NCBI GenBank assembly: GCA_022813865.1
Contig: JALDZX010000002.1
Coordinates: forward strand, 62,001-126,000
Reading direction: 5' to 3'
Length of the DNA: 64,000 nucleotides
Origin: Xylographa opegraphella
Taxonomy: Eukaryota
Part shown: piece after piece, positions 43,533 to 64,000 of the stretch
Layout: each line of letters starts with the position of its first letter
Numbering within the stretch: position 1 is the stretch's first letter
Made by a program: the position numbers and the translations under genes
The notes under the pieces: model-generated
Told to the model about the DNA's origin: nothing
Database searches by the model: none
The model's input: the letters and a program-made list of their open reading frames with translations, nothing else

Positions 43533-44996
43533 ATGGTGCAGCTCCTGTGGCTAGTCACCACTGGGACTCTCTTCTGTACTATGGTTCTTGCTCAGACAAA
43601 CATACCGACATGCGGGCAAGGCAACAACTGCCCAGAAGACCTACCATGCTGTTCACGTAAGTTGTGTGAATCGCACTGTCGAAAACTTGGAGCTAATTTA
43701 TTCCCGGAACATAGAATACGGGCAATGTGGTGTCGGAGCCTATTGTCTAGGCGGCTGCGATCCTATGTTCTCACACACTCTTGACTCTTGCGTTCCAGCA
43801 CCTATCTGCAGATCGGAGGACTATAAGCTGACTTCTCTTGATGGGATAACGCCGAACACTGAGTATTTGGGAGATGCGTCCAAGTCTAATTGGGTCTCAA
43901 GCGGAGAACCAGTTTTGTACAACGATCAAGTGCTTTTAACTATGGCGGAAGGCACAGTCGGTACTTTGCTGGCGAGCACATCGTACGTGTGGTATGGAAA
44001 TGTCAAGGCGACTTTAAAGACAAGCAGGACGGCCGGAGTAGTAACGGCTTTCATTTTGCTCTCCGACGTCAAGGATGAAATCGATTTCGAATTTATAGGA
44101 ACGGACTTGAATACTGCTCAGTCAAATTTCTATTTCCAGGGTGTTACTAATTGTAGGTACATCTGCATCTCGTCTCTTAGGCCTAAGGCTGACAACATCC
44201 AGACACTAACGAGGTGAACATCTCCGTCACTGATACTTTCGGAACCTATCACACTTATGAAGTTGATTGGACCCCTGATACGCTTACATGGTTGATTGAT
44301 GGTACACCGCACCGTACTTTATCTAGGAATACTACATGGAATGCTACCTCGAACCAATATCAATATCCTCAAACGCCAGCCCGCATCCAGCTTTCACTTT
44401 GGCCAGCTGGACTCAGCTCTAATGGACTAGGGACCGTACAGTGGTCCGGTGGTCTCGTAAACTGGCAATCCCCAGACGTTCAGCATGCTGGCTATTTCTA
44501 TGCTATGGTTAATGAGGTCAATGTGCAGTGCTATGGTCCGCCTTCAGGAGCGAAGGTTTCTGGTTCCACATCATATATTTACGACAACGCGAGGGGGACC
44601 AACGACACTGTCGAAACGACGAACCATGGCACAGTTCTCAAATCGCAGCTTGGTACTGGTACGAATATGTCCGCAGCGTATCCAAGCCAAATAGCTACTG
44701 GAACTGCTTCCGGATCGAACCCAGCTTCCACTAGCGAGATACCAACTATACCAGGTCTGAATGGAGCTGGGACTGGCCTCAACGGACAAAGAGGAGACCC
44801 TGGTTCTGCGGCCTCGAGCATAGGCGGCTCTACTCCCAGCGGAACCGCCTCAGTTGCGGTGTCAGCCTCGACAGGGTTCCATGGATTCGCGCAAAACCCT
44901 GGCTCAAGTATGGCTTCATTACCGCAAGGCCAGAACGTGCTGCTAGGATCTCTGTTTGCCGTTATAGTCTCCGTCATTGGTATGTTAGCGATTTAA
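43533..44996 (+). CDS. utr2: GH16 chitin transglycosylase Utr2/Crh2 with CBM18-like domain and probable GPI anchor
   Basis: Signal peptide; Cys-rich CPEDLPCCSQYGQCGVGAYCLGGC; catalytic DEIDFE; YPQTPARIQLSLW; S/T-rich tail and hydrophobic C-terminus. Introns 43657-43714 and 44153-44202. Confidence 0.95.
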
Positions 44997-47827: not shown

Positions 47828-49058
47828 ATATTGGTACCGAAGAACGGAATAGCTTCTTGATTGATATGATTGCAATCTGGAAAAACCGAACATTTCCCCG
47901 GTTATCATATCTCACGGCTTAAACTGAACGCCTTGCCGTTGCGTTGATTCTTGGCTAGATATGTATGACAAATTATAAAGTTTCGATTTTCGTGTTCTAT
48001 CACTGCGCAAGATTCACTTCTGGGTATATGGAATTCATGACCACCACAGCCAATGGCACCCTGCTGACCCAAATCTACTCGCATCGCCGTGAATCGTCTT
48101 TTAGCGTGCTGAAGAACGATCCGAGCCGGTGGTCGTCTATCTTCGCTGTCAAATCACTCACGACGATCATGGCAAACAACCACCTGGCCACCCAATCGTC
48201 CACCAAACATGGTCACTCAGGCACGCCGACACAGCTATGCCACCTTTGCTGTCAGCCAGGCATTTGAATCTCGCTCGACAAAGCCGAGATATCCATTTCC
48301 ACAGAAACGGGTCCACCGCATTCATCCCCATGCCCCAAAACAATCCGGAGGCGTCGCCGGCATTCACTTTCCCAGGTCCTCAGATGTGACCCTCCCGCCT
48401 GCGCACTTTGACACACGCCGAGGCATGTTCGAGCACACAACCAGTCGGACGCCGAGTTTGCTCCCCCCCTCCCATCATGACTGGCTCCGACTTTACGATC
48501 CATACCTTGGCGTCACCACTTTGACTCTTTTGCTTTGCTTTCTGGTCGGGGCTGGTTCCCTTTCTATTTGTTTCTGATCTTCATTACATGCTTTAGACTT
48601 CTGCGTCTCTTACCTGTTATCAGCATTACATTTCTGAGGAGCTTTATCCTATTCTGGCGTGCTACATATCCCCACAGTCGAGGGTGTATACCGCACCACG
48701 CGATCGCACCACACGATCAAACTCCAAACGACATTTCAATATACCTAGACAGCTTCGAGGTAGATAATCTAGCGGACGGTCTTGAGTACCTGCTGACCGA
48801 CATGTAGCAACCTCCTCAGCTACGGCCACCAGACCTCACAAGTGCACAGAGCCACCGCAGCGGACTCGACAGAGGAGCACAACACCACCATCCTAGCCAC
48901 AAAGACATCCTCCCCACCAATAAACCCATCCCAGCTCGCCCAAGCCCTTCCAAGTCACCATACCCACCCGCCACCACCTCAAAACCCCCTCTCGAACCCC
49001 AGCCAATCCAGCATCACCACCGCTCGAACCAACCCCAACACCCCCCCATCCACACAGC

Positions 49059-49625
49059 ATGTGCCTCCACACCACCCACACCTACTTCACCCTATGCGCG
49101 CACCTCCTCCCCATCCCACAACTAGCACCCTTCTTCATCCCGCCGGAGCGCTGCCACCGCCTGACGGCCGCGCTGCGCCACTACCACACGCAGCCCGACC
49201 GCCTGCCGGAGCAGTTCCCCATCCCGTTCCCGCACCCGTGCGCGCCCGCGCCGGACAACTGCCGCATGTTGGTCGTGCAGGGCCTGTGCGGCGGGTGCGC
49301 GGAGGAGCGGTGGTGGCGCGAGAGGGAGTGGTTCGCGGGGCTGGTGGGCCGGATGCGGGTGCAGTGGGAAGGGGAGCCCGGGAGGGGAGGGCGCGGGTGT
49401 GCTGCGGGGGACGAGGACCCGGCCGTGGCCGAGGAGTGGCCGTACGGTGACAGGGTTAGGGTGTCGCCGCTGCCGTCGCCGAAGGTGGGGCCCGGCGCCG
49501 TGGGGCCCGGCGCCGCGGCGCCCGAGGCGGAGCCGGTGGGTGCGTGGTGGGTGGACGGCGGCCGAGTCGTGGGTGTGCGATGGGATGGGGCGCGGACGCG
49601 GAGTGAGAGCTTCCGCTGGGGATAG
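49059..49625 (+). CDS. Cys/His-rich protein, divergent paralog 3
   Basis: 188-aa ORF MCLHTTHTYFTLCAH...C...PFPHPCAP...CGGC; very GC-rich codons. Confidence 0.6.
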   Translation: MCLHTTHTYFTLCAHLLPIPQLAPFFIPPERCHRLTAALRHYHTQPDRLPEQFPIPFPHPCAPAPDNCRMLVVQGLCGGCAEERWWREREWFAGLVGRMRVQWEGEPGRGGRGCAAGDEDPAVAEEWPYGDRVRVSPLPSPKVGPGAVGPGAAAPEAEPVGAWWVDGGRVVGVRWDGARTRSESFRWG

Positions 49626-50018: not shown

Positions 50019-51915
50019 TCAATGATTGCAGTCCAGACTCCGCTTGAAGTCCCCGTGGTAGTGATCCATCTTATCAACTACCTTGGACTCTGGTACTGGT
50101 TTACCCATCCAGCTTTCTCGTGATCCATCAGCGGCGAAGGTATCGAAGAAAGAACCTTTCTCAAGTAGCTCTTTGGTGATGGGCTCTAAATCAAGATCAA
50201 GGTAGTCTCGCAGAAAATCGCCAACTTCGGTATTCTCATGGTTACCGATAAGCTTTCTGGCATCCCTAGGATGGGAGGCATAGATATTCACATCGGCGGC
50301 TGGTGAGATATTAGCAGTGCATAAATAAGTTGGACATGAAGCAACGACGCACCTGAGTGTCCATGAGTGGCCCAGCCGGATTGAGCGCGCCGGCTCACAA
50401 TATCCGCAAAGATATAAGAAGCCGGCCACGGATCTGAGTGGTCGATCAAAGATTTCATCTCTGCGTCTGTCACATCGTGCACACCCAACCCTTTCTGAAT
50501 GAGCTCTTGTTTGATGTATTCCCTAAGCTCGGATTCTGTGGTATCTTGGTGTTGTGCAAGATAGTCCCGTAATTGATAAGCCAAGTTCTCTGCAGAATGA
50601 GTGACGTTGGCTAGTGTTTCTGGATACCACAAATATTCGGGGTAAGTTCTGTGTAGCTCTATTCAAGGTCAGCGAAAAAAAAGCATAACCGACTGCCTCG
50701 TTACTCACGTCTAGCTGTGGCTAGTCCTCCTGTCTCATGGTCGCTGGTGCTTATAACCACTCCTGGAACATCATCATTTTCCAAGAACTCTAAAGCACTC
50801 GCGAAAGCCTTGTCATAGGCAAGGACTTCGTGTACTTGGGCTGCTGGATCATTACCATGTCCCGCATGATCGATCCTGCTGCCCTCGATCATCACAAAGA
50901 ATCCTTGATCACTATCCTTCGTTGCTTCAGATAACGCTTTCAATGCTGTTTTGGCCATCTCATCCAATGAAGGATACACATCTTCAACTTGACGTCTATC
51001 TATCTCATACGGGATGTCGGTTTGTGCGAATAGACCGAGCAGCGGAAGTTTAACAGCACTTCCTACTTGAAGTCCGTCAAAACCTGCTCGATCATGGACA
51101 TAGCTGAAACCATTATCCTTAGCCATTTCGATAACGTCGACCGTATCCGCCCGGCAGGAGCCCGGTGTCCCTTGCGGTAGGAAATGACATCGACCACCAC
51201 CAAGAAGTAGATCAACCACATGCCCCAAAGGATGATCCCCAATCAACTGTCTAGCAATCTTGTCTTCCTCGTCCCTTAAGTTGACGTGTGCAGCAAAGCA
51301 GGCTGGTGTAGCGTCAGTAATCCTCGTTGTCACCACGAGGCCAGTCGTGTATCCTGCCCTTTTTGCAGCCTCCATCACTGTACCGCACGGGGTATGGTCA
51401 GGAAGCACAGAGATGGCCCCGTTGTAACTCTTGTGACCGCATGAGAAGGCCGTAGCACCAGCAGCAGAGTCCGTAATAAGACTGGACGTGCTTCTTGTCC
51501 TTGAAGAGCCTATCAGATGCTGATCCAGCACAAGTATATCGTCTGGCGGTAGCCCGCTCTCAAACTGCCGAAAACTTCTTGTGAGTGAGAGGCTCGTAGG
51601 ACCCATACCATCCGACACCATGAATATAAGATTTCTCTTTCCGCTTGGCTTGGCCCCCTTCCAGCTTCCAGAACCTGGTGGGCGCGCGGTCTGCTGATGT
51701 TGATACATTACAGCAACGATGATGACACCCGCGGTTGCAGCGACAGCCCACACGAAGATGCCGATTTCGCGCCAAAAGGGCCAGCCATATTTCTGAGTAG
51801 ATTGTGGCTTATGCTTTCCAGTGAGGAGAGCATCTTCTTCCTCAATAGTGCGCTCGTCTGAATTCTCCGATGACGGTCGATCCGCAGCCAGTAAAGGTTC
51901 ATCGTTCCGCGCCAT
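50019..51915 (-). CDS. pho8: Vacuolar-type alkaline phosphatase
   Basis: N-terminal TM anchor; MVSDGMGP, TDSAAGATAF, EGSRIDHAGH, SDHETGG and THGHS motifs. Introns 50659-50708 and 50300-50352. Confidence 0.96.
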
Positions 51916-53292
51916 CGTGCCCAAAGTGAGATGTAAGGACTATTCTCAAAGCGCGTGTCCGGGGCAAACCTGAGCAGGATGGTCGTTGTCGTCAGACGTG
52001 GATGTTTGCAACAGCATACACTACTAGGTCATTGGTCACCGGGGATCTACGTAGTAGGGCAGCATGATCTATGAGTACCTTTTGATTGGTCAGTTGTCCG
52101 CTACCGCACTAACCATTCTAGAACTTAGCGGTATCGGTTGCTGGCAAAGACTTGCGGCTATGTTTCCTACGTAGTGACTACCATGCCTGATATGTCTTTT
52201 GTGCTTCGCTACCTCGAGGCCTGTTTCAGCTTGCATGGCAGATCTTGTGTTGCCAATCAAAACTTCCCGATGGTCTGGGGCAACATCGAATCCACTTCAG
52301 ATTATTTCAAAGCATGCAGGGTAGCTGTAGAGCTATTATTATAAAGCTGGCCCAGACCTGGTTGGGTCGACAGAACTCATCACCAGCAAGTATATATTGG
52401 AAGATTGACCTCTAGCAATCAGTCAGGGAGCTCGATGATTTCAGCAAAAAGACTAATAGTTATCTTCTATATTTATTACTTCTCTCCCTTCTTCCTATTC
52501 TATCGAAGTATGCCCTTTGATTATGGTGCCTTTTTCTTCTTCTTCTTTTAAACTTTTTAGTGTTCCAAGCGCTTCTCCCAAATCATTAGCTTCCGCTCAC
52601 GTTGCATAGCGTAGTAATCTATGATCTCTGCTCAGATATCTATCCAAGAGAGCAAGGAACCGCTTGCATGCTACTGGTGCTTGCCTTTGAGACTTCATGT
52701 ATGGTGTCCATCGCTCCTTAACGTCGCCATCAGCATGAATAGAATGTCCAAGGCACTCCCATCGTGAACATGGACCTTAGCGCTGACCTAGCGTCGTGCC
52801 TTACTACGAGCCGCTGGGACTATAGAAGAACCTCCCACTAAGCCGAAGATCATCCAAAATGACTGGTAGTCAGCAACTGTGCCCCTTGAAAGACTCGAGC
52901 CTGTGCGGCTACGTTGCACTACTTTCGTGGGATATCAGACAAAGTCTTGTCCGGTGCCTTGCCATCATGCGAGGATGGAATGGGTGTAAGGAAGTTGGAT
53001 GTAAGAATCAAGTGGGAGTGAAGTTGTCAAACGCTGAACTACAGAATGACAGATAGACCACATGCCTCATCCGGTGTACTAGTAATAAACACTGATTAAG
53101 CACAATCGAATGAATCATGATTGTATACGGCACTATAGATATGCTTAACACCGTCCATCATGAGACTCGCACACCCTCCCTTCGTGAGAAGGTAATCGTG
53201 AAAAATCTGACGTGGTTTTCCGCCCCGCTCCAATCCAAATTACTGCTGAGAAATCTTCCAGTGATTGTACCATTATCATGAATGACAAAGAT

Positions 53293-54039
53293 TCAATCCT
53301 GAATAGGCTGATCGTACATAAGCTTGTCCATCAGATCTGTGAAGCTCCCGTCCGGGTTCATAAGCTGTGCGGCTGGACTAACGAAGGTGTCCGGAGGCTG
53401 TCGCATACATCCAAAAAACCCGTACTCAAACACCCAGTCTGCCCCATCCATATAGTTGGCCAGTTGTGAGGTAAAGCCGAGAACGCTCGCTCCGTTTCGA
53501 TCGATCGAAGCGATTTCAGATACAATGATCGGCTGCGAATACTTCGAGTGCATATTTTCCAGAAATTGAATCGCGGCGTTCCCATCGGTCCCATAGTAGT
53601 GGAGGCCCAGATAATCTGGAGCTTTGTCGGAGACGCGTCCCATGAAATCTGCAATCCACGCCTGGCCGGCGTCGTCATTCGAACAGGAAGGACTGACGAG
53701 TTGCTTTCCTTTCTGCTCACGAAGAGGCACCATCTGGTTATGCCAAACATCTGCCGCGTGTTCCGCAGAAATTCCGGCGCGCTCGGGCTCGTTGAAGAAG
53801 TGAATGATCGGCTGATCGGTGTTTTGAATCATGTCCCAGTCGTTTCCAGAAAGCTGGGCTTCCAGATGTACCATTGGACGAAATGGAGCACGGCCCTTGA
53901 GCTCGGGAGGCACCCATGCGTTCCAGTTACTCACAGATGATGCAGGCCCATCAAAGTTGACCTTGTCCATGGCCCATGGAACACCCGAGTCGCCGGTATT
54001 TGTACAGTCCCATAAGAGGCAGCGCTTTTTCACTGCCAT
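53293..54039 (-). CDS. GH128 beta-1,3-glucanase without signal peptide (resembles subgroup VI, from memory)
   Basis: MAVKKRCLLWD, SNWNAW, FRPMVH, FFNEPE (acid/base), LGLHYY, IIVSEIA (nucleophile) and EYGFFG; intronless. Confidence 0.9.
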   Translation of the reverse strand: MAVKKRCLLWDCTNTGDSGVPWAMDKVNFDGPASSVSNWNAWVPPELKGRAPFRPMVHLEAQLSGNDWDMIQNTDQPIIHFFNEPERAGISAEHAADVWHNQMVPLREQKGKQLVSPSCSNDDAGQAWIADFMGRVSDKAPDYLGLHYYGTDGNAAIQFLENMHSKYSQPIIVSEIASIDRNGASVLGFTSQLANYMDGADWVFEYGFFGCMRQPPDTFVSPAAQLMNPDGSFTDLMDKLMYDQPIQD

Positions 54040-55395
54040 GTTATTGCCTTCGTTCACCAAGTTCTGCCAAATAAAACAACTGTTACAAGTCGAATAAATC
54101 AGGATATTGGTCAAATATAATTAAGGATAATATCACTATCAGAAAGCGGAAACAGAATTATGTGAGTCAAATGAAAGAACTGGGTACGCTGCAGCGGTAC
54201 TTAAATATGTCGGGCGGCTGTGCATGCTGCATCGAATTCGGCTTTTGTGTTTGGAGCTGAAATATACTGTTATTTTACCGCCTACAACTGTAGGGTTAGC
54301 AGAAGTGGGTTAGTACAGCATGAATGGGGGTCGCTAAAGCACAACTTCCATGCGGCAACCTCGTTCCGAAGGTAAGGATTGTCGGGTTACATTCTGGCTG
54401 AGCTCGAGTGATAGGTCCCTATTATCGTAGAGCTGAGATGCAAAGATGTATCATTTTCTCAATCCTGAAGGTATACAAAGCGGTGAACGGCGGCAATCCT
54501 CATTTAGTATCAGTGTAACGCACAGTCAGTCCGGACAACGTGTTTGATTGGCAGTCGTAGACACTAGATGGTCTCGACGCCAGGAATTCAAGGCTGCGCT
54601 GAGGCTGTTTCGCAGAAAGGATTACGCCGTCGGCTCAACAATACATGTTTGCTGACACCACGACGTCGAAGGCACCTTGTACCTGGGCGCGGCAATTTCT
54701 CCACTAAGGCAGATTAAGCCTAGTGCAACGCGTAGGACTTATCTGGCGGACGCTGAGGAGTCTGACACGCCGTGCAGGCTTCTGGGGCTTCTGGGGCTGG
54801 GTTCTTGTGCTGTATGACATTATGCGACACACGTCCCAGAGACGGCAGCTCTCTGACTTCAGGTGTATACCAATAGCGTGGCTGTAGCGGCACTGTCTAC
54901 CGAAAAGTAGCGTGAAGACGACACATCCTGCTCAGGATCATTGCATAAGGCACCTGGATCCTATGCTGGATCCTGCATTGCGTGACTTGCCTGAGCTACT
55001 TCCAGTTTCCTATGCACCGAGATCGCACATGATGGTGGCATGTACACAGGATCAAGACTTTGTTTCATGATGCGCTTACTCTGCCTTGCCTTATTACATG
55101 AGTTTTGGGGATTCATGGCGTCGAGCCCTCGCTCTGAGCTCGCATGGGGGTTCGTTACTGGCTGCACTAAATGATATAAGACTGCAAATCTCCGGTACAT
55201 CTATTCGAGTTTCCAAAGTGCTCTGCCTGTTATACGCAAGGCATTATATATTTTTCACTTTAACTCCCTATATATAACACTGTATCGCTACTGTTCTCCA
55301 AGCTCTACCAATCAAGGTAATACTTTATTATTTCCGTCGAAAGCCTCGTACTTGCTATCTCAAATCCATGAAGCATAGTGGCACCGCAAAACACA

Positions 55396-56054
55396 ATGGC
55401 GCACAATATCAATATCACCAATTTGTCAGGCCACGATCAGGAGTTTGAAGTACACGGATGGAACAACAGCAGCAACCTGACTGTCCAAGCGGGCGCAACT
55501 GTCAGTATCGAAGCAAACGATGGATCATCTGGGGCTATTATCGCATTACATGAGGGACATGAAGGCGAACAGGCAGAGATTACGAAATGTGGATTTGGTG
55601 GTAGCACGCCTACGGAATTTCCTTTTGAGACGTTAGCCATATACTGATCATTTAGCCAGGAAACGATTTTTTCGACATCAGTAACATCTGCGGTGCAGGC
55701 GGTAATTTAACTATACAACAAGCTGGAAAACCGGAAACGAGGAAAGGTGCCCCAACCTTCATGCAGCAGTGCAACGACGCCTATCAGCAAGCGGATGAAA
55801 ATACGAAGCAATCCCTGCAAGCTTGCGTGCACCTCGACGGTTCAGGCAATGTGGTCAGAATCGATGCGTGCAAGGACTTCCCTCAACTTGAGGCGTTCGT
55901 GCGCACGTTCGCGGATGGCAAAACATATATCGGTGTGGGCGCCTGGGATGGCAGTGCAGGGGCTGCCAGCGACAACAACCAATCATCTGCTGCGCAGGGT
56001 AGTACAGATCTGCAAGTCACGTATAATGATGGGGATGCCACTCCGCCATCTTGA
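55396..56054 (+). CDS. Thaumatin/osmotin-like protein A without signal peptide (hypothetical)
   Basis: Exons 55396-55600 and 55660-56054 join in frame: MAHNINITNLSG...EQAEITKCGFGGNDFFDISNICGAGG...KTYIGVG. TATATAA box at about 55271. Confidence 0.72.
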
Positions 56055-56588
56055 ATGCGACTCACTAAGTGTAATACCGGGAAGTAAAGGATGGAAATAT
56101 GTCAATCTCTATTACCAAATATTCTATTACTAGCTTCACGTCTCAAAAAGCCATCTGTTTGGTCTCTTTTGTTAGTATTCTATAATGTACGGATTTACAG
56201 CTGTCTTCCTGTGCAAAGCGTGACGCCGGGTCTTGCAATTGCAATTGGTCCGGTGGGTCGTGAGCCAGATATCTGTAGCAATGGGCGACCAATATTTGCG
56301 AAAGGACGCCATCACCCTTGCAGATCCTTATGGCACAGATTCCGCTGAGCGTCAAGGCGGATTCCATCAGACATGGGGGCCATTTTTGGCACTCCTAAGA
56401 GAAGCTGCGACGCTGTCGCCTATATAATGCACTGGAGGCCCTCATGATCTGTTTCGTTTCTATTTACTGCAAAATTCGGATCTAAAACCCGTTGCAGCAC
56501 CAACTCCCCTTCTCTAATAGGTCAACATCTTCATCAAACATTAGCCAGACTAATCATCAACGAGAAACCTCTACCTACACGACCCACC

Positions 56589-57161
56589 ATGTCCGAACCG
56601 AATGGACCCGGCATCATATTGAGCAACAAATCGGCCCAGGAACAAACCTACGTCTTCTACGACAATTTCTGGAACGGCGTCGGCACGGCCGGCGCGAATT
56701 TCGATCACCCCGGCACTTCCGTCACCCTTCAGCCTGGGGAGACTCAGTTCGTCAGTCTTCCAGACACGTTCAAAGGACGAGTCCAACGCGGCACGCAGCT
56801 TCCTGCCACATGGGTGGAATTCCAGGTCAAGGCTGATAACGATGGTGCCGCTCACGGTGATATCAGTCTGGAGCAGGGCTGCGATGGGGCAGCGACCATA
56901 AGTGCTACTGACGGCAGTGGGCGTTCGAACGGGTTTTCAGATGATATCCTGTCCGGAGCGCCTGATGCCGCTCTCGGGCAACGGTCGGATGGGGTGAAAG
57001 CTCTGGCGACCACGATGGGGAATTGGACTGGCGGTCCGAATCAGGCTGCGATAAACTACTTGAATCAAGTTGTGGGACAGCAGAAGGCGTATATTGTTGG
57101 AGGTACTGGGACGGATGACGTAGCTTCCAGTAATATGTGTCTGGCTGTAGATTTCTATTGA
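56589..57161 (+). CDS. Thaumatin/osmotin-like protein B without signal peptide (hypothetical)
   Basis: 190-aa intronless ORF with IILSNKS, TLQPGET, FKGRVQRG, ATWVEF, HGDISLEQG, KAYIVGG and terminal LAVDFY, which parallel thaumatin beta-sandwich motifs. TATATAA at 56421. Confidence 0.75.
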   Translation: MSEPNGPGIILSNKSAQEQTYVFYDNFWNGVGTAGANFDHPGTSVTLQPGETQFVSLPDTFKGRVQRGTQLPATWVEFQVKADNDGAAHGDISLEQGCDGAATISATDGSGRSNGFSDDILSGAPDAALGQRSDGVKALATTMGNWTGGPNQAAINYLNQVVGQQKAYIVGGTGTDDVASSNMCLAVDFY

Positions 57162-58936
57162 GTTCCTACTGCGGAAGGACTAAATTATCAATTATATCCT
57201 TGTTCGATTGGAAGCGGGTGGTCAAAGGACTTGACCATAGTCGTGTCCTGTTGGTATGCTTAAATATGCAGTTGTTTAATTCTGTAACTTCAACTATTGT
57301 ATTCCGTATGACTATCGTAAAGGATAGTCTGGTGACATTACATTGAAACGTCTGTGGGGTTTATACTTCCGTTTCGTAACCCGGCGGCACAGGAATTATC
57401 TCCCAGGCGATCAACGGCGTATGATATTCAGCTCACCTCGGCGGCCTGCACTCTGACATGCAGTCGAGGCACAATCAGCTGGTCATATCTACGTGCATGA
57501 GCTGCTAACAAGTTCAGTCGAGTAGCCGGTAGCCGCCGAGTTTTGGGTGCCTCATCCTGCAGCAGTGTCAGCGCTATGGACAGCAGGATCATGAAATAAC
57601 GGCTCAGCTACGCGGGCTGTTCCAGATCCTTTGATTTGGACTCGTCACCCATCAGCGGCTTTGATAGCCCTTTATATAGCCCCAGAGCCAGCGAATTAGC
57701 TACAAGCACACAACCCGGACCGGGCTCTCTTCTGGAGAAAGTTTCTCGACTGCAGGTATTGAGAGCCTTGTGCACCGCTCTGCCTTTGTCGAGGCCCCCA
57801 TTTCGAGCTTCAATCGTTTGCTCGAACATACTATTCATTGATGGCGCACTATCCGATGAACAGAATACCCATGATGTGCTCCAATAGTGTACCTATCTCG
57901 TCCGTGTCCAAGTGATCTTTCTTTCATGATCTTTCAGATTTACCAAAAGACTGCTTCTCCCACAGCTCGTCAAGCCGCTCAGGCTCAGGGCGATGACCGA
58001 CAAGACCGTCAGTGGACGCTACAGCACAGTAGGATCCCACGCGCAAGCGCTCGCCAAGGCCAACGACGATATCAACCATCGCGGTGTAATATGCCAGGGC
58101 AGGAATCTGTATTGAATCGGCAGCAATATCGACACGTTGAGTATAGGTGAATAAACAGACAAATTATCTCTGGCATAGCATCGGTGACGTGTCCTTTGGA
58201 AGTTATGGTCACTGCATTCAGGTATGTCTCCGGTATGGAGCATGAATAAGCTACAAACTGAGCGCTCGCACAATAAGTCATAAAACCAGCTACCACAAGC
58301 GTAGGCATCGGTCCTGTAACGAAAGGGACACAATCGTTGTGATTCAACATAACCCACAAGTAGGCTGGATATAAGAACGCCTACAAATACTCCAGCTGGC
58401 ACTTCACAAATCGAAATCCGGTTTCCAATGCCAAGGAGGCAGAAAATAATCCCATACCAAAGGAGAAGGTGGCGAGCGCATTAGATAAGATAAGCTGTGA
58501 TAGCCTAAGGTAGTTGTATAAGTGTTATGAATCCCTACACATTCTGCGTGTAGCGATGTATGTGTCCACGATTGTTTTAGCAAGCGTAATGGTAATTGTG
58601 TGACATAGACACTGATGCATATTCCCTCTCTTGTATTTCCAACTTCAAAGCAAGATTACAAGCTGAGCAAACCGAGATGAGAATCGCTTCGTTCTGGTAC
58701 AGAAATGTAGGTACGCTCCGTAGATTGAATAGAAGGTTAAGCGGAGGAAAATTGTAATCTCGTTAGGTCCGTTGGGATATCGTGTTACCCCTGCTACCTA
58801 AATTCGCGCGCTAAAGCGGTAGAATAGGCGCCAGACGAGCCGTAAATGCATTATCTCATACTTCAAAGCATTCTATTTTCCGAAACAATAACCGCTTGGT
58901 CTCCAAGCTTTATTGAGGCTCTCAATAACATCAAGG

Positions 58937-59709
58937 ATGAGGGCTCCCAGTATCCAATTAATCAGTTTACTCAGGTATGTTGAACATGGGCAAAGCTGTT
59001 GTAAACTGCAGCGGCGAATTCTCTCCCATGCTCAGCATGCTGTCCCACCATTTCGAAGGGATTTGAGCCAGTCCGTTCATAAAGCCCGATTCTCCTCATC
59101 GGCGACTCTTCGTGATACAACGACGGCTGCCAAGTCCACAGACCGGGGACCGTCATCAGAGGAGGATACTCAGACTGATTTTGGCTCAATGAACGTCCTG
59201 GGCAATACTCCTCCGCCAACTACGTCCATCGATGCTTGTCTGACTGACGGCTTCCACCTTGATAACGGTCTGAAAGTTGGTGGTGGATCGGGTTGTCTCC
59301 TGGTTGCTGGGGAAGCTTTCAGCTGGAGACCCTGGGAAGCATCGGCCACATCCAAAAAAAGGCAGATGATAAATGCTCAAGGTCAATGGGAAGTTGAGAG
59401 AGAGGCCTGGGGTATACTAGATCTCGTCTGGCCGAAGCCTGGTACGATCGCATGACATGACATGTTCCACTCTCGAATCCTAGGTTCGCACACTGACTGC
59501 CTTTATGTATAGATATGTTGATATTGGGACTGGGTGCTTCGACTTATCCAATATCACCGGAAACTCGGAAGTATATCAACTCGCTAGGTATAAAAGTTGA
59601 TATTCAGGATACCAGAAATGCTGCAGCGCAGTTCAACCTGCTAGCCACGGAAAGAGGCGTTGGTAGTATTGCTGCAGCTTTGATTCCAATTGGGTTCAAA
59701 GGACGTTAG
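58937..59709 (+). CDS. NDUFAF3: Mitochondrial complex I assembly factor NDUFAF3 (Mth938 domain)
   Basis: Mitochondrial-type presequence; LVWPKP|DMLILGLG...DTRNAAAQFNLLATERG. Intron 59442-59512. Confidence 0.92.
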
Positions 59710-62326: not shown

Positions 62327-62702
62327 GATGGCTTAGAGAGGATGTTGTAGAGATTTAGAGTCGTTGTCGCGAAATTCGCTGCGCTGATCGCGAATCTGAT
62401 GTTGAATTATCGATGTGTGGGTGCTAGTCCTAGAATTGACTAAAAGGGTAACTAGCGCCGTTCCGCGAAACGTTCCATATTGAAGGCAAGACGAACGCCA
62501 CTTTTTTCGACAGCTGTGATACCACACCAGAGTGCTGTGTCTACAGGCTCCGTGTTTGTAAATTCCTTGTTGTCTCTTCAGTTTACATTGGACCATCATC
62601 ACTGGAGGCTTCTACAAGGTATCAGTGTCTGAACGACACTCACACGTGCGCGTCGACAGGGTTTTTCACCTCTTGAAGCCCACCAACATTCTTTCTATCG
62701 AT

Positions 62703-64000
62703 ATGGCATCATTACCCCCTCCTCCTCCAGGATGGGGTGTATCTGCGCCACCAGGCATGCCTTCAGCTCCGCCTCCTCCAGGTTATCGACCGCCAGCTGA
62801 TCCGCAAGTTGCGAAGTTTGCGCAAAAGAAGAAGGAATGGCTTCGTTCGCAGCGAAACCGCTTCGGAGAGAAGAGGAAAAGTGGATTCGTGGAAACTCAG
62901 AAGGCCGATATGCCACCGGAACACTTGAGGAAGATTGTGAAGGACATTGGAGATGTTTCACAGAAGAAGTTTAGCAGTGACAAACGGAGTTATCTCGGAG
63001 CTTTGAAATTTATGCCACACGCTGTACTGAAGCTGCTGGAAAATATGCCCATGCCTTGGGAGTCGTCTCGGGAAGTTAAAGTGTTATACCACGTCAACGG
63101 GTGTCTGACACTGGTCAATGAGATTCCGAGAGTCATCGAGCCAGTCTTCCACGCACAGTGGGCTACGATGTGGGTGTGTATGAGAAGGGAAAAGAGTGAC
63201 AGAAGGCATTTCAAACGTATGCGTTTTCCCCCATTTGATGATGAGGAGCCACCTTTGTCGTGGTCAGAAAACATTGAAGACGTTGAGCCTCTTGAACCTA
63301 TTCAGATGGAGCTTGACGAAATAGAGGATGGGCCTGTCTTGGAATGGTTCTATGAGCATCGACCTCTTCTGGAAAGTCCCAATGTCAACGGGGCGAGCTA
63401 CAAAGAGTGGAACCTCACTCTTCCTCAAATGGCAACACTTTATCGGTTAAGCCACCAACTTCTCAGCGATCTAGTCGACGAAAACTACTTTCATATGTTT
63501 GATCTTAAAAGCTTTCTTACTGCAAAGGCCCTTAATGTTGCCATCCCTGGTGGACCGCGCTTCGAGCCTCTGTACAAAGATGTTGATCCGAACGACGAAG
63601 ACTTTGGGGAGTTCAACGCGATCGATCGAATAATATTCCGTGCGCCCATCAGGACGGAATACCGGGTGGCCTTTCCTTTCCTTTACAATTCCTTGCCCCG
63701 AAGCGTTCAACTATCTTGGTACTCCTACCCACAGGTCGTATATGTCAATGCCGAAGACCCAAACCTACCAGCGTTCTACTTTGATCCTGTAATTAATCCG
63801 ATATCGTCGCGTTCCGTCGCGCCTAAGAATCTCACTGTTAGCCACGAAGATGAGATATTTGGGTATGGCAATTCCGAAGACGAGGAATTCAAGCTACCTG
63901 GCAATACGGAGCCTTTTCTGGCAGACGAGGAGCTTTACACTAGCGAAACCTCCTCTGCGATCAAGCTTTGGTGGGCACCATTTCCTTTCGACCGCCGTTC
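62703..64000 (+). CDS. prp8: Pre-mRNA splicing factor Prp8, 5' part (runs off the window)
   Basis: Pro-rich N-terminus, then [63 protein letters not shown] and [11 protein letters not shown]. Confidence 0.98.

Follow-up and report, generated by a model that had tools for sequence, protein, structure and literature searches.

A leaderless GH128 glucanase gene paired head-to-head with thaumatin-fold genes in Xylographa opegraphella and other fungi

Introduction

Thaumatin-like proteins and glycoside hydrolases of family GH128 are usually treated as secreted, disulfide-stabilised proteins of the cell wall or of defence. A locus of the lichen-forming fungus Xylographa opegraphella raises the question of what such proteins may do when the signal peptide is missing. 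The analysed DNA, referred to here as the window, is a stretch of 64,000 nucleotides (GenBank assembly GCA_022813865.1, contig JALDZX010000002.1, positions 62,001 to 126,000 of the forward strand), and the locus consists of a GH128 gene (gene A) transcribed divergently from two small tandem genes (genes B and C). The original prediction, made from the sequence alone, described A as a GH128 gene with both glutamate motifs and regarded B and C as divergent thaumatin-like proteins of one beta-glucan module; the genes were found exactly where it had placed them, and the glutamate motifs are present.

Our general reading, held with moderate confidence, is that a leaderless GH128 enzyme and a tandem thaumatin-fold partner may act as a co-regulated system for the binding and trimming of beta-1,3-glucan outside the classical secretory route.

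Conservation of the gene neighbourhood

Metagenome contigs were scanned with an alignment of C, which yielded 47 loci, and genes A, B and C were placed in them by tblastn. Loci whose C genes were at least 95% identical in DNA sequence were collapsed, leaving 32 distinct groups. The clade of the window C comprises 27 groups (54–76% identity, plus 44% for L047, whose contig cuts C after approximately 40 residues). Gene B was detected directly upstream of C in all 24 informative groups, three further groups being cut, and a GH128 gene was present upstream of B, on the opposite strand, in 17 of the 19 groups with enough sequence. GH128 could not be assessed in five groups in which B is visible but the sequence is too short, nor in the three cut groups. 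In 23 loci the GH128 and B genes are arranged head-to-head, with a gap of 508–1339 bp.

The expected co-location of the genes in other fungi was therefore borne out by 17 of the 19 informative distinct loci, although the proposed three-gene form was not, as the module is basically composed of GH128 and one tandem protein (see below).

Comparison of 20 kb of the window with all of the loci (tblastx) revealed recurrent shared sequence only in genes A, B and C; the few matches elsewhere were each limited to a single locus. As the flanks are not shared, it is the block itself, and not its surroundings, that is kept. Judging from the source names, the module is carried by several classes of ascomycetes and by some Agaricomycetes (Mycena, Roridomyces). 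The named sources are mostly lichen-forming fungi and rock-inhabiting or black-yeast fungi (Xylographa, Calogaya, Ikaeria, Endocarpon, Baudoinia, Aureobasidium, Elasticomyces), and further records, e.g. from Xylona heveae, suggest the same co-location.

The C domains of two basidiomycetes, P0057 (Mycena vitilis) and P0070 (Roridomyces roridus), are 66–67% identical to that of the window (67% and 64%, respectively, by BLASTP), and are as close to it as many of the ascomycete copies. This closeness could reflect either strong constraint or horizontal transfer.

Fold and sequence families of the two small proteins

Structure models (AF2) were built from alignments of 44 relatives of B and 48 relatives of C. 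The model of B had a predicted local distance difference test score (pLDDT) of 89.2 and a predicted template modelling score (pTM) of 0.85, and that of C had a pLDDT of 91.7 and a pTM of 0.88. In Foldseek searches of the PDB, 28 thaumatin-like chains headed both lists (best E-values 3.8e-8 for B and 2.6e-8 for C), as the original prediction had anticipated; over both aligners used, 27–28 such chains came first. A second aligner (VIA) matched the B model with zeamatin (1du5; Z 15.2, root-mean-square deviation 2.5 Å, 159 residues aligned) and the C model with thaumatin (3e3s; Z 17.0, 2.6 Å, 164 residues). The thaumatin-like matches cover the whole B and C chains (Z 15–17, 159–172 residues aligned), and both proteins are thus modelled with the thaumatin fold throughout their length.

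Ranked next for both models were GH64 beta-1,3-glucanases (Z 9–12), the elicitor MoHrip2, the wheat xylanase inhibitor TLXI (3g7m; Z 10.5 for B and 12.2 for C) and the SUN4 domain (Z 6.6–7.6). The beta-sandwich of B also showed a weak likeness to aegerolysins and Cry34, at Z 6–7, which is the range of common arrangements. The top Protein Atlas clusters neighbouring these proteins are unnamed ("hypothetical protein"), and the clusters of thaumatin (0.88), GH64 (0.83) and Bys1 (0.82) all fall below 0.9 and serve as leads only. Complex prediction for B with C, run without controls, gave a score of 0.29, below the mark of 0.34, and carries no weight for or against binding.

At the sequence level, the skeleton that had been noticed in B and C is present in the window and is kept in both families: an IxxxNxS strand (INITNLS in B, IILSNKS in C), a Glu strand (QAEITK and WVEFQ, respectively), the motif DISxxxG, which has three residues between Ser and Gly instead of the two originally read, and K[AT]YIx[GV]G. 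We take IxxxNxS to be the first strand of thaumatin, in which the framework cysteine is replaced by serine. Direct comparison of B with C by BLASTP revealed no significant similarity (best E-value 4.4), and trimmed profile-profile alignment gave an E-value of 0.0094 with a probability of 4% (local) or 0.1% (global). An untrimmed hhalign match between the two was rejected as spurious, since it was located in read-through tails. B and C resemble each other in their fold and in short motifs, and their paralogy is not supported by sequence.

Against the Pfam Thaumatin family (PF00314), C scored 13.3 bits, below the gathering score of 27.4. This sub-threshold match spans residues 68–108, which contain the invariant E77 and D91. 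Weak matches to the same family (E <1) were obtained for 20 of the 48 C relatives (best 8.6e-4) and for none of the 44 B relatives; the window B matches no Pfam family. The score of C against the Asp f 4-like family PF25312 (15.6 bits) was also below the cut-off (27), with E <1 in five of the 48 relatives. The source names of the B and C relatives are "hypothetical protein" throughout. Two further results came from searches of the PDB: a match of the C-family profile to OmamC (E 0.0012, in a C-terminal stretch) was taken as chance, and the fused protein P0238 (see below for this form) retrieved by sequence only a POU domain, with an E-value of 0.93.

The acidic cleft of thaumatin is formed by one Arg, one Glu and three Asp residues. 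In the alignment of 48 C-family sequences, 29 columns are invariant; many of these hold polar or aromatic residues, and R64, E77, D85, D91 and Q96 are among them. In the B family the Glu of QAEITK and an Asp in NDFxD are conserved. A correspondence of these residues to the cleft positions may be presumed from motif alignment and from the Pfam match to residues 68–108. The strong conservation of C would fit a precise ligand site, or even catalysis. Proteins A, B and C contain four, five and two cysteines, respectively; in B and C the only conserved ones are C124 (75%) and C98 (90%), respectively. Thaumatin-like proteins have a disulfide framework of 16 (L-type) or 10 (S-type) conserved cysteines (PMC13148976), and B and C are without this framework. 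The two proteins share the thaumatin fold and fail membership of the thaumatin family by Pfam score, cysteine content and signal peptide; the original designation as thaumatin-like proteins is accordingly retained for the fold (Z 15.2 and 17.0) and abandoned for the family.

Absence of a leader and the secreted sister clade

As had been noted from the window alone, none of the three proteins has a hydrophobic signal peptide: the maximum Kyte-Doolittle mean over 10 residues, within the first 45 residues of A, B and C, is only 0.4–1.0. A conserved start methionine is located 1–4 residues before the first strand in the window as well as in GH128 of 19 loci and in B of 30 loci. The frames upstream of GH128 and B are unrelated from one locus to the next and often run into a stop after a few codons, and coding sequence able to supply a signal peptide, which the original prediction had named as a refuting finding, was found upstream in none of these loci with a visible start (19 for GH128, 30 for B).

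Five groups (seven loci: L037, L040 and L041–L045) form a stand-alone sister clade of C, with 41–50% identity. They contain neither B nor GH128, even in L041, L042 and L045, where 4.9–10 kb of upstream sequence is available. A classical signal peptide precedes the C domain in six of the seven loci, the exception being the more distant L045, and Periconia P0066 resembles this clade. From these sequences, the clustered, leaderless clade probably has its secreted counterpart in the sister clade. Because the starts are conserved and the sister clade carries signal peptides, the leaderless, cysteine-poor state is a real trait of the clustered clade and no artefact of gene models.

Fused and split forms of the thaumatin-fold partner

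B and C make up a single protein in most fungi. Relatives of C longer than approximately 300 amino acids start inside the B domain and read without a stop into the C domain (e.g. P0004, P0007, P0103 of Baudoinia and P0070 of Roridomyces). A B-family profile search of 1.84 billion representative proteins retrieved only 77 at E ≤ 0.001, among which are complete B-linker-C proteins of 415, 434, 437, 462 and 614 amino acids. B and C form a single open frame in at least 13 of the 24 distinct groups of loci, and several of the remaining groups look as if they had an intron inside the linker. The linker of the fused form comprises 22–55 residues and is rich in His, Pro, Ala and Gln. In P0236, a prediction of 277 amino acids, a LysM domain (PF01476, E 1.6e-13, residues 233–275) directly follows the B domain and ends the protein, and the fused protein P0237 has a partial LysM match within its linker (residues 215–236).

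A splice joining B to C in the window was ruled out, as there is no GT between the conserved TYNDGDA codons and the stop. The split form also appears in NCBI models of three Xylographa species (C of 190 amino acids in two of them, B of 199 amino acids in the third). Since the stop of B cannot be spliced out, C has its own ATG and the Xylographa models agree, the sequences indicate that the three-gene form arose in this lineage by fission within a two-gene module.

Ahead of its ATG, gene C has a further 47 codons of open frame (56448–56588), which read ...HQTLARLIINEKPLPTRPT; a recurrent LAHR motif occurs at the matching linker position in other fungi. This open stretch may be a remnant of the ancestral linker.

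A motif of the presumed shared promoter

An unbiased count of all 6- to 8-mers covered 14 orthologous intergenic regions between GH128 and B. CAGCCTC ranked first among the 7-mers and was present in 12 of the 14 regions, while the best 7-mer in 20 shuffles reached eight; the top 8-mer, ACAGCCTC, occurred in nine regions (five in shuffles). The reverse complement of CAGCCTC, GAGGCTG, is the consensus upstream of calcineurin/Crz1-dependent yeast genes (PMC11868491). The overlapping CACAGCC fits CAC[AT]GCC, the motif of promoters bound by MoCRZ1 in Magnaporthe, whose targets include genes of cell wall synthesis and maintenance (PMC2873923).

In total, 23 GAGGCTG sites were identified in 17,976 bp of intergenic sequence, with at least one site in 14 of 18 regions, compared with three sites in 24,776 bp of 3' flanks of the same genes. 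The density is 6.7-fold higher than in the rest of the loci (0.19 sites per kb), and none of 1000 dinucleotide shuffles reached 23 sites (mean 3.2, maximum 10). The enrichment of GAGGCTG is a family-wide result for elements of the calcineurin-dependent response element (CDRE) type. On this basis, the module is a candidate target of signalling in response to cell-wall or calcium stress.

The GH128 enzyme

The product of gene A matches PF11790 over residues 33–237 (E 5.7e-31, 108.3 bits, cut-off 21), and its residues 3–246 match PDB entry 6UB8 with an E-value of 8.2e-95 and approximately 60% identity over 244 residues, as counted on the alignment. We take 6UB8, 6UBA and 6UBB to be AnGH128_VI of Aureobasidium namibiae (Santos et al. 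2020, Nat Chem Biol). The FFNEPE and VSEIAS motifs of A align column for column with 6UB8 and with 6UB2 of Lentinula. In these motifs the NEP-type Glu is presumably the acid/base and the SE-type Glu the nucleophile. GH128 enzymes are retaining, with two catalytic Glu residues (PMC10956234). Gene A is thus a new member of a known, structurally solved GH128 subgroup, and its product is predicted from sequence to hydrolyse beta-1,3-glucan or its oligosaccharides.

Orthologs of A are mostly 245–253 amino acids in length. Residue 22 of the crystallised 6UB8 chain aligns with residue 3 of A, and the approximately 20 residues that precede it are, we presume, a tag, so that the enzyme has the same leaderless start point as A. 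In four loci (L027, L031, L034 and L039) the N-terminus of GH128 is near-identical to that of the 6UB8 chain, and B-C genes adjoin it. Within the portions of the literature available to our search, there was no mention of a thaumatin-fold gene beside the solved enzyme, nor of the cellular location of the enzyme; it was apparently studied alone.

The ortholog in L002 (L002:5631-4882) has an in-frame stop (LLWD*TNT) where the near-duplicate L003 has Trp (LLWDWTNT), which is either a sequencing error or the sign of a pseudogene copy.

Structure and surroundings of the locus

The features of the locus are listed in Table 1. Splicing of the gene B intron restores the conserved motif GNDFFDISN, and the spliced product is 100% identical to the NCBI protein P0122 of Xylographa opegraphella. 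Two proteins of Xylographa vitiligo, MMC15_003261 and MMC15_003263, are 96% and 95% identical to the products of genes A and C, respectively. The combined Asp, Asn and Gly content is 22% in A and 28% in both B and C, in agreement with the richness in these residues first seen by eye.

Table 1. Coordinates of genes and other features in the window.
Feature	Position	Strand	Remarks
Flanking gene, alkaline phosphatase (PF00245)	50701–51939	-	1.4 kb from the module
Gene A, GH128 (Glyco_hydro_cc) predicted beta-1,3-glucan hydrolase, leaderless	53293–54039	-	248 amino acids, one exon
Divergent intergenic region, 1356 bp, presumed shared promoter of A and B	54040–55395	.	no family-matching open reading frame inside
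AAGGCTG, weaker second motif	54590–54596
GAGGCTG, Crz1 CDRE-type motif	54601–54607	+	top 7-mer of orthologous intergenic regions; as a lone site in the window, not significant
Gene B, exon 1	55396–55600	+	residues 1–68 and first base of codon 69
Gene B, intron, 59 nt	55601–55659	+	GTAGCA...CAG, CTGAT branch-point-like site; read from sequence
Gene B, exon 2	55660–56054	+	whole protein 199 amino acids; N-terminal domain of the fused protein elsewhere
B-C spacer, 534 bp	56055–56588	+	position of the in-frame linker of 22–55 amino acids in other fungi
TATATAA ahead of the gene C start	56421–56427	+
In-frame stop ahead of the gene C start	56445–56447	+
Gene C, leaderless	56589–57161	+	single exon, 190 amino acids; C-terminal domain of the fused protein elsewhere
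Flanking gene, DUF498/NDUFAF3-like	58892–59455 and 59515–59709	+	short intron; 1.7 kb from the module
Prp8, N-terminus	62562–63998	+

The module had been described as an island in gene-poor DNA. This description does not apply: given the distances of the nearest genes (Table 1), the flanks are ordinary intergenic DNA for a fungus and not unusually gene-poor. The alkaline phosphatase, DUF498 and Prp8 neighbours are not conserved beside the module in the other loci.

At a distance of 8 kb from the module, two adjacent open reading frames (ORFs; 43555–44996, plus strand) both match GH16 (PF00722; E 3e-24 and 2e-18) and most likely constitute a single, intron-split gene of a GH16 wall transglycosylase or glucanase. 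A jump in composition was observed between 48000 and 50000, from GC 0.54 with a GC skew of -0.30 (48–49 kb) to GC 0.65 (49–50 kb); in this region long ORFs overlap on both strands, and the scanned ORFs 48797–49450 and 48924–49625 (plus strand) had no Pfam match.

Discussion

According to the reading that we favour, the module consists of two partners. One is a small leaderless GH128 hydrolase of beta-1,3-glucan; the other is a leaderless, acidic, disulfide-free protein, which carries two unlike thaumatin-fold domains, B and C, on a disordered linker. In Xylographa the latter partner has been split into two genes, with C gaining a start codon and a TATA box. The partners are transcribed head-to-head from a presumed shared promoter of 0.5–1.4 kb with the Crz1-type GAGGCTG. 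The analysis shows the folds, the lack of leaders and of disulfide frameworks, the relation of fused and split forms, the kept gene order and the enrichment of the motif; the functional part of the reading goes further. Calcium or cell-wall stress would switch GH128 and B-C on together. From the functions of thaumatin-like, GH64 and SUN proteins (PMC13148976, PMC13251364, PMC10282164), as well as from the LysM insertion, we infer that B and C may bind beta-1,3-glucan in their clefts, as those proteins do. Chitin binding may be added by the LysM located behind the B domain in one relative or more. The thaumatin-fold domains would hold or present the polymer, and GH128 would trim it. The site of action would be one that needs no signal peptide, i.e. 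the cytosol, or the wall reached from inside; the proteins could meet the glucan in the cytosol, at the inner face of the wall once the membrane is damaged, in the course of lysis from within as with Eng2 of fission yeast, or after unconventional export.

Several observations weigh against this reading. No Pfam family matches B, and C stays under every gathering threshold. By motif alignment, one of the cleft Asp residues of thaumatin appears to be replaced by the invariant Q96 in C and by Cys, Val or Thr in B, so the cleft of B and C does not appear to be canonical. GH128 is absent beside B-C in two loci, L008 and L016, with 3.2 kb and 5.9 kb of upstream sequence, respectively. The ORFs upstream of B in these two loci encode a ubiquitin hydrolase and no other recognised family, and no alternative glycosidase was found (in L008 a Zn-cluster transcription factor gene is located downstream of C). 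As for the promoter, GAGGCTG was picked out post hoc, and its test used the data from which it came; four pairs of regions are alignable and therefore non-independent (when one of each was dropped, 11 of 14 regions had a site), and the window contains just one full site. Finally, we know of no established substrate for a cytosolic beta-1,3-glucanase in filamentous fungi.

Two alternatives retain an action on wall glucan. One of them, which we consider rather unlikely, is lysis of the wall from the inside, in which a cytoplasmic store would meet its substrate on membrane loss or attack from within, during dehiscence of the ascus or conidiophore, hyphal autolysis or cell death, in the manner of Eng2 and Agn2. 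Neither of these fission-yeast proteins is known to have a signal sequence, and all three proteins of the module are likewise leaderless. Eng2 is a beta(1,3)-glucanase that hydrolyses the wall of the ascus, and in vegetative cells it is part of a cytoplasmic complex (PMC8429772); agn2 and eng2 are needed for endolysis of the ascus wall (PMC3846778). However, the module is also present in Agaricomycetes (Mycena, Roridomyces), which have no asci, and the Crz1-type promoter points to stress and not to development, though the two can overlap. The other alternative, unconventional secretion, whereby the proteins would arrive at the wall although they have no signal peptide and would remodel its beta-1,3-glucan in the manner of ordinary wall glucanases and secreted thaumatin-like proteins, seems unlikely. 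It would agree with the LysM domain located behind the B domain in one relative, as LysM domains typically bind chitin outside the cell. The nearest relatives that have been characterised, Glu1 (GH128) and Tlg1 (GH152) from Lentinula, have wall glucan as their target (PMC10282164), which also favours an extracellular site. The near-total loss of disulfide cysteines, however, fits a reducing compartment, and the sister clade keeps its signal peptides, a contrast that suggests different destinations for the two clades.

In the remaining explanations the thaumatin-fold domains do not bind glucan, or the association itself is questioned. That B and C might regulate or inhibit GH128, for which TLXI is a precedent, is quite improbable in our view: TLXI is among the structural matches of both models, and a tight, conserved pairing is, by inference, typical of an enzyme and its partner, but full-size thaumatin-like matches are clearly stronger than TLXI, B-C occurs without GH128 in two loci, and the LysM insertion points to a polysaccharide ligand. 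We attach a very low probability to a role unrelated to glucan, be it osmotin- or antifreeze-like protection from stress or a cytoplasmic defence against grazers, with adjacency reflecting a shared stress regulon. The mostly lichen-forming and rock or black-yeast carriers, and the weak likeness of B to aegerolysins and Cry34, speak in its favour; the Z-scores of 6–7 are nevertheless in the range of common arrangements, and pairing with a glucanase in 17 of 19 groups, together with the LysM insertion, argues for a wall polysaccharide. No observation was found in favour of chance adjacency or of a gene-model artefact. Chance adjacency is refuted, as order and orientation are kept across loci with proteins 44–76% identical and with unshared flanks, and an artefact of gene models is contradicted by the agreement of the NCBI models of three Xylographa species with ours; the probability of either is negligible.

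The favoured reading, a co-regulated pair acting on beta-1,3-glucan, can be set against several known systems. Thaumatin-like proteins (PR-5, PF00314, GH152) have the same fold, and the Glu strand and the D-I-S motif lie inside the Pfam-aligned segment of C. B and C differ from them in lacking a signal peptide and the framework cysteines, in scoring below the Pfam thresholds, in the tandem of two unlike domains and in the obligate pairing with GH128. In Lentinula edodes, Tlg1 (GH152) and Glu1 (GH128) are both linked to the breakdown of wall glucan (PMC10282164). The SUN proteins (ScSun4/Sim1, GH132) have a thaumatin-like subdomain for beta-glucan binding, with acidic surfaces and without the canonical motif of the cleft; a polar canyon supplies the Glu and the Gln on which they depend (PMC13251364). 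C likewise contains an invariant Glu and an invariant Gln, which may correspond to this pair; unlike B and C, SUN proteins are secreted, disulfide-bonded and equipped with a sushi-like subdomain.

The barrel domain of the GH64 laminaripentaose-producing beta-1,3-glucanases matches the B and C models (Z 9–12), but these enzymes are bacterial, about twice the size, have a second domain and show no detected sequence similarity to B or C. Eng2 (GH81) and Agn2 provide a functional precedent for a leaderless wall hydrolase, yet they belong to unrelated families and have no thaumatin-fold partner. The weak likeness of C to the Asp f 4-like (PF25312) and Bys1 (PF04681) families comes with scores that give no basis for membership.

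A more specific and decidedly speculative form of the favoured reading, to which we give little weight, is a cytosolic surveillance and repair system for beta-glucan. Damage to the membrane would let calcium in and so activate calcineurin-Crz1, which in turn would induce the leaderless glucan binder and GH128; a LysM-bearing binder would also recognise chitin. The target would be wall glucan exposed to the cytoplasm at wounds and septal plugs, or on the hyphae of mycoparasites and of lichenicolous or endohyphal fungi that enter the cell. If true, a fungus would recognise beta-1,3-glucan inside its own cells, in a way that resembles innate immunity.

In the portions of the literature that were available, we found no paper describing a gene pair of GH128 and a thaumatin-fold protein, the tandem architecture, or leaderless, cysteine-poor thaumatin-like proteins. 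B and C represent unnamed families, and their pairing with GH128, tandem architecture and leaderless, disulfide-free state appear to be undescribed. They define a sharply bounded clade in which the leader and the disulfide framework were lost and two unlike thaumatin folds were fused, in a gene locked head-to-head with a leaderless GH128 across several classes of ascomycetes and some Agaricomycetes. The fused and split forms of the same protein constitute a natural experiment, and an already crystallised GH128 enzyme gains a genomic context, and hence a testable biological role. With leader and disulfide framework both absent, the module suggests a handling of fungal wall glucan that bypasses the normal secretory route and, if the proteins work in the cytosol, it raises the question of the role that beta-1,3-glucan plays there.

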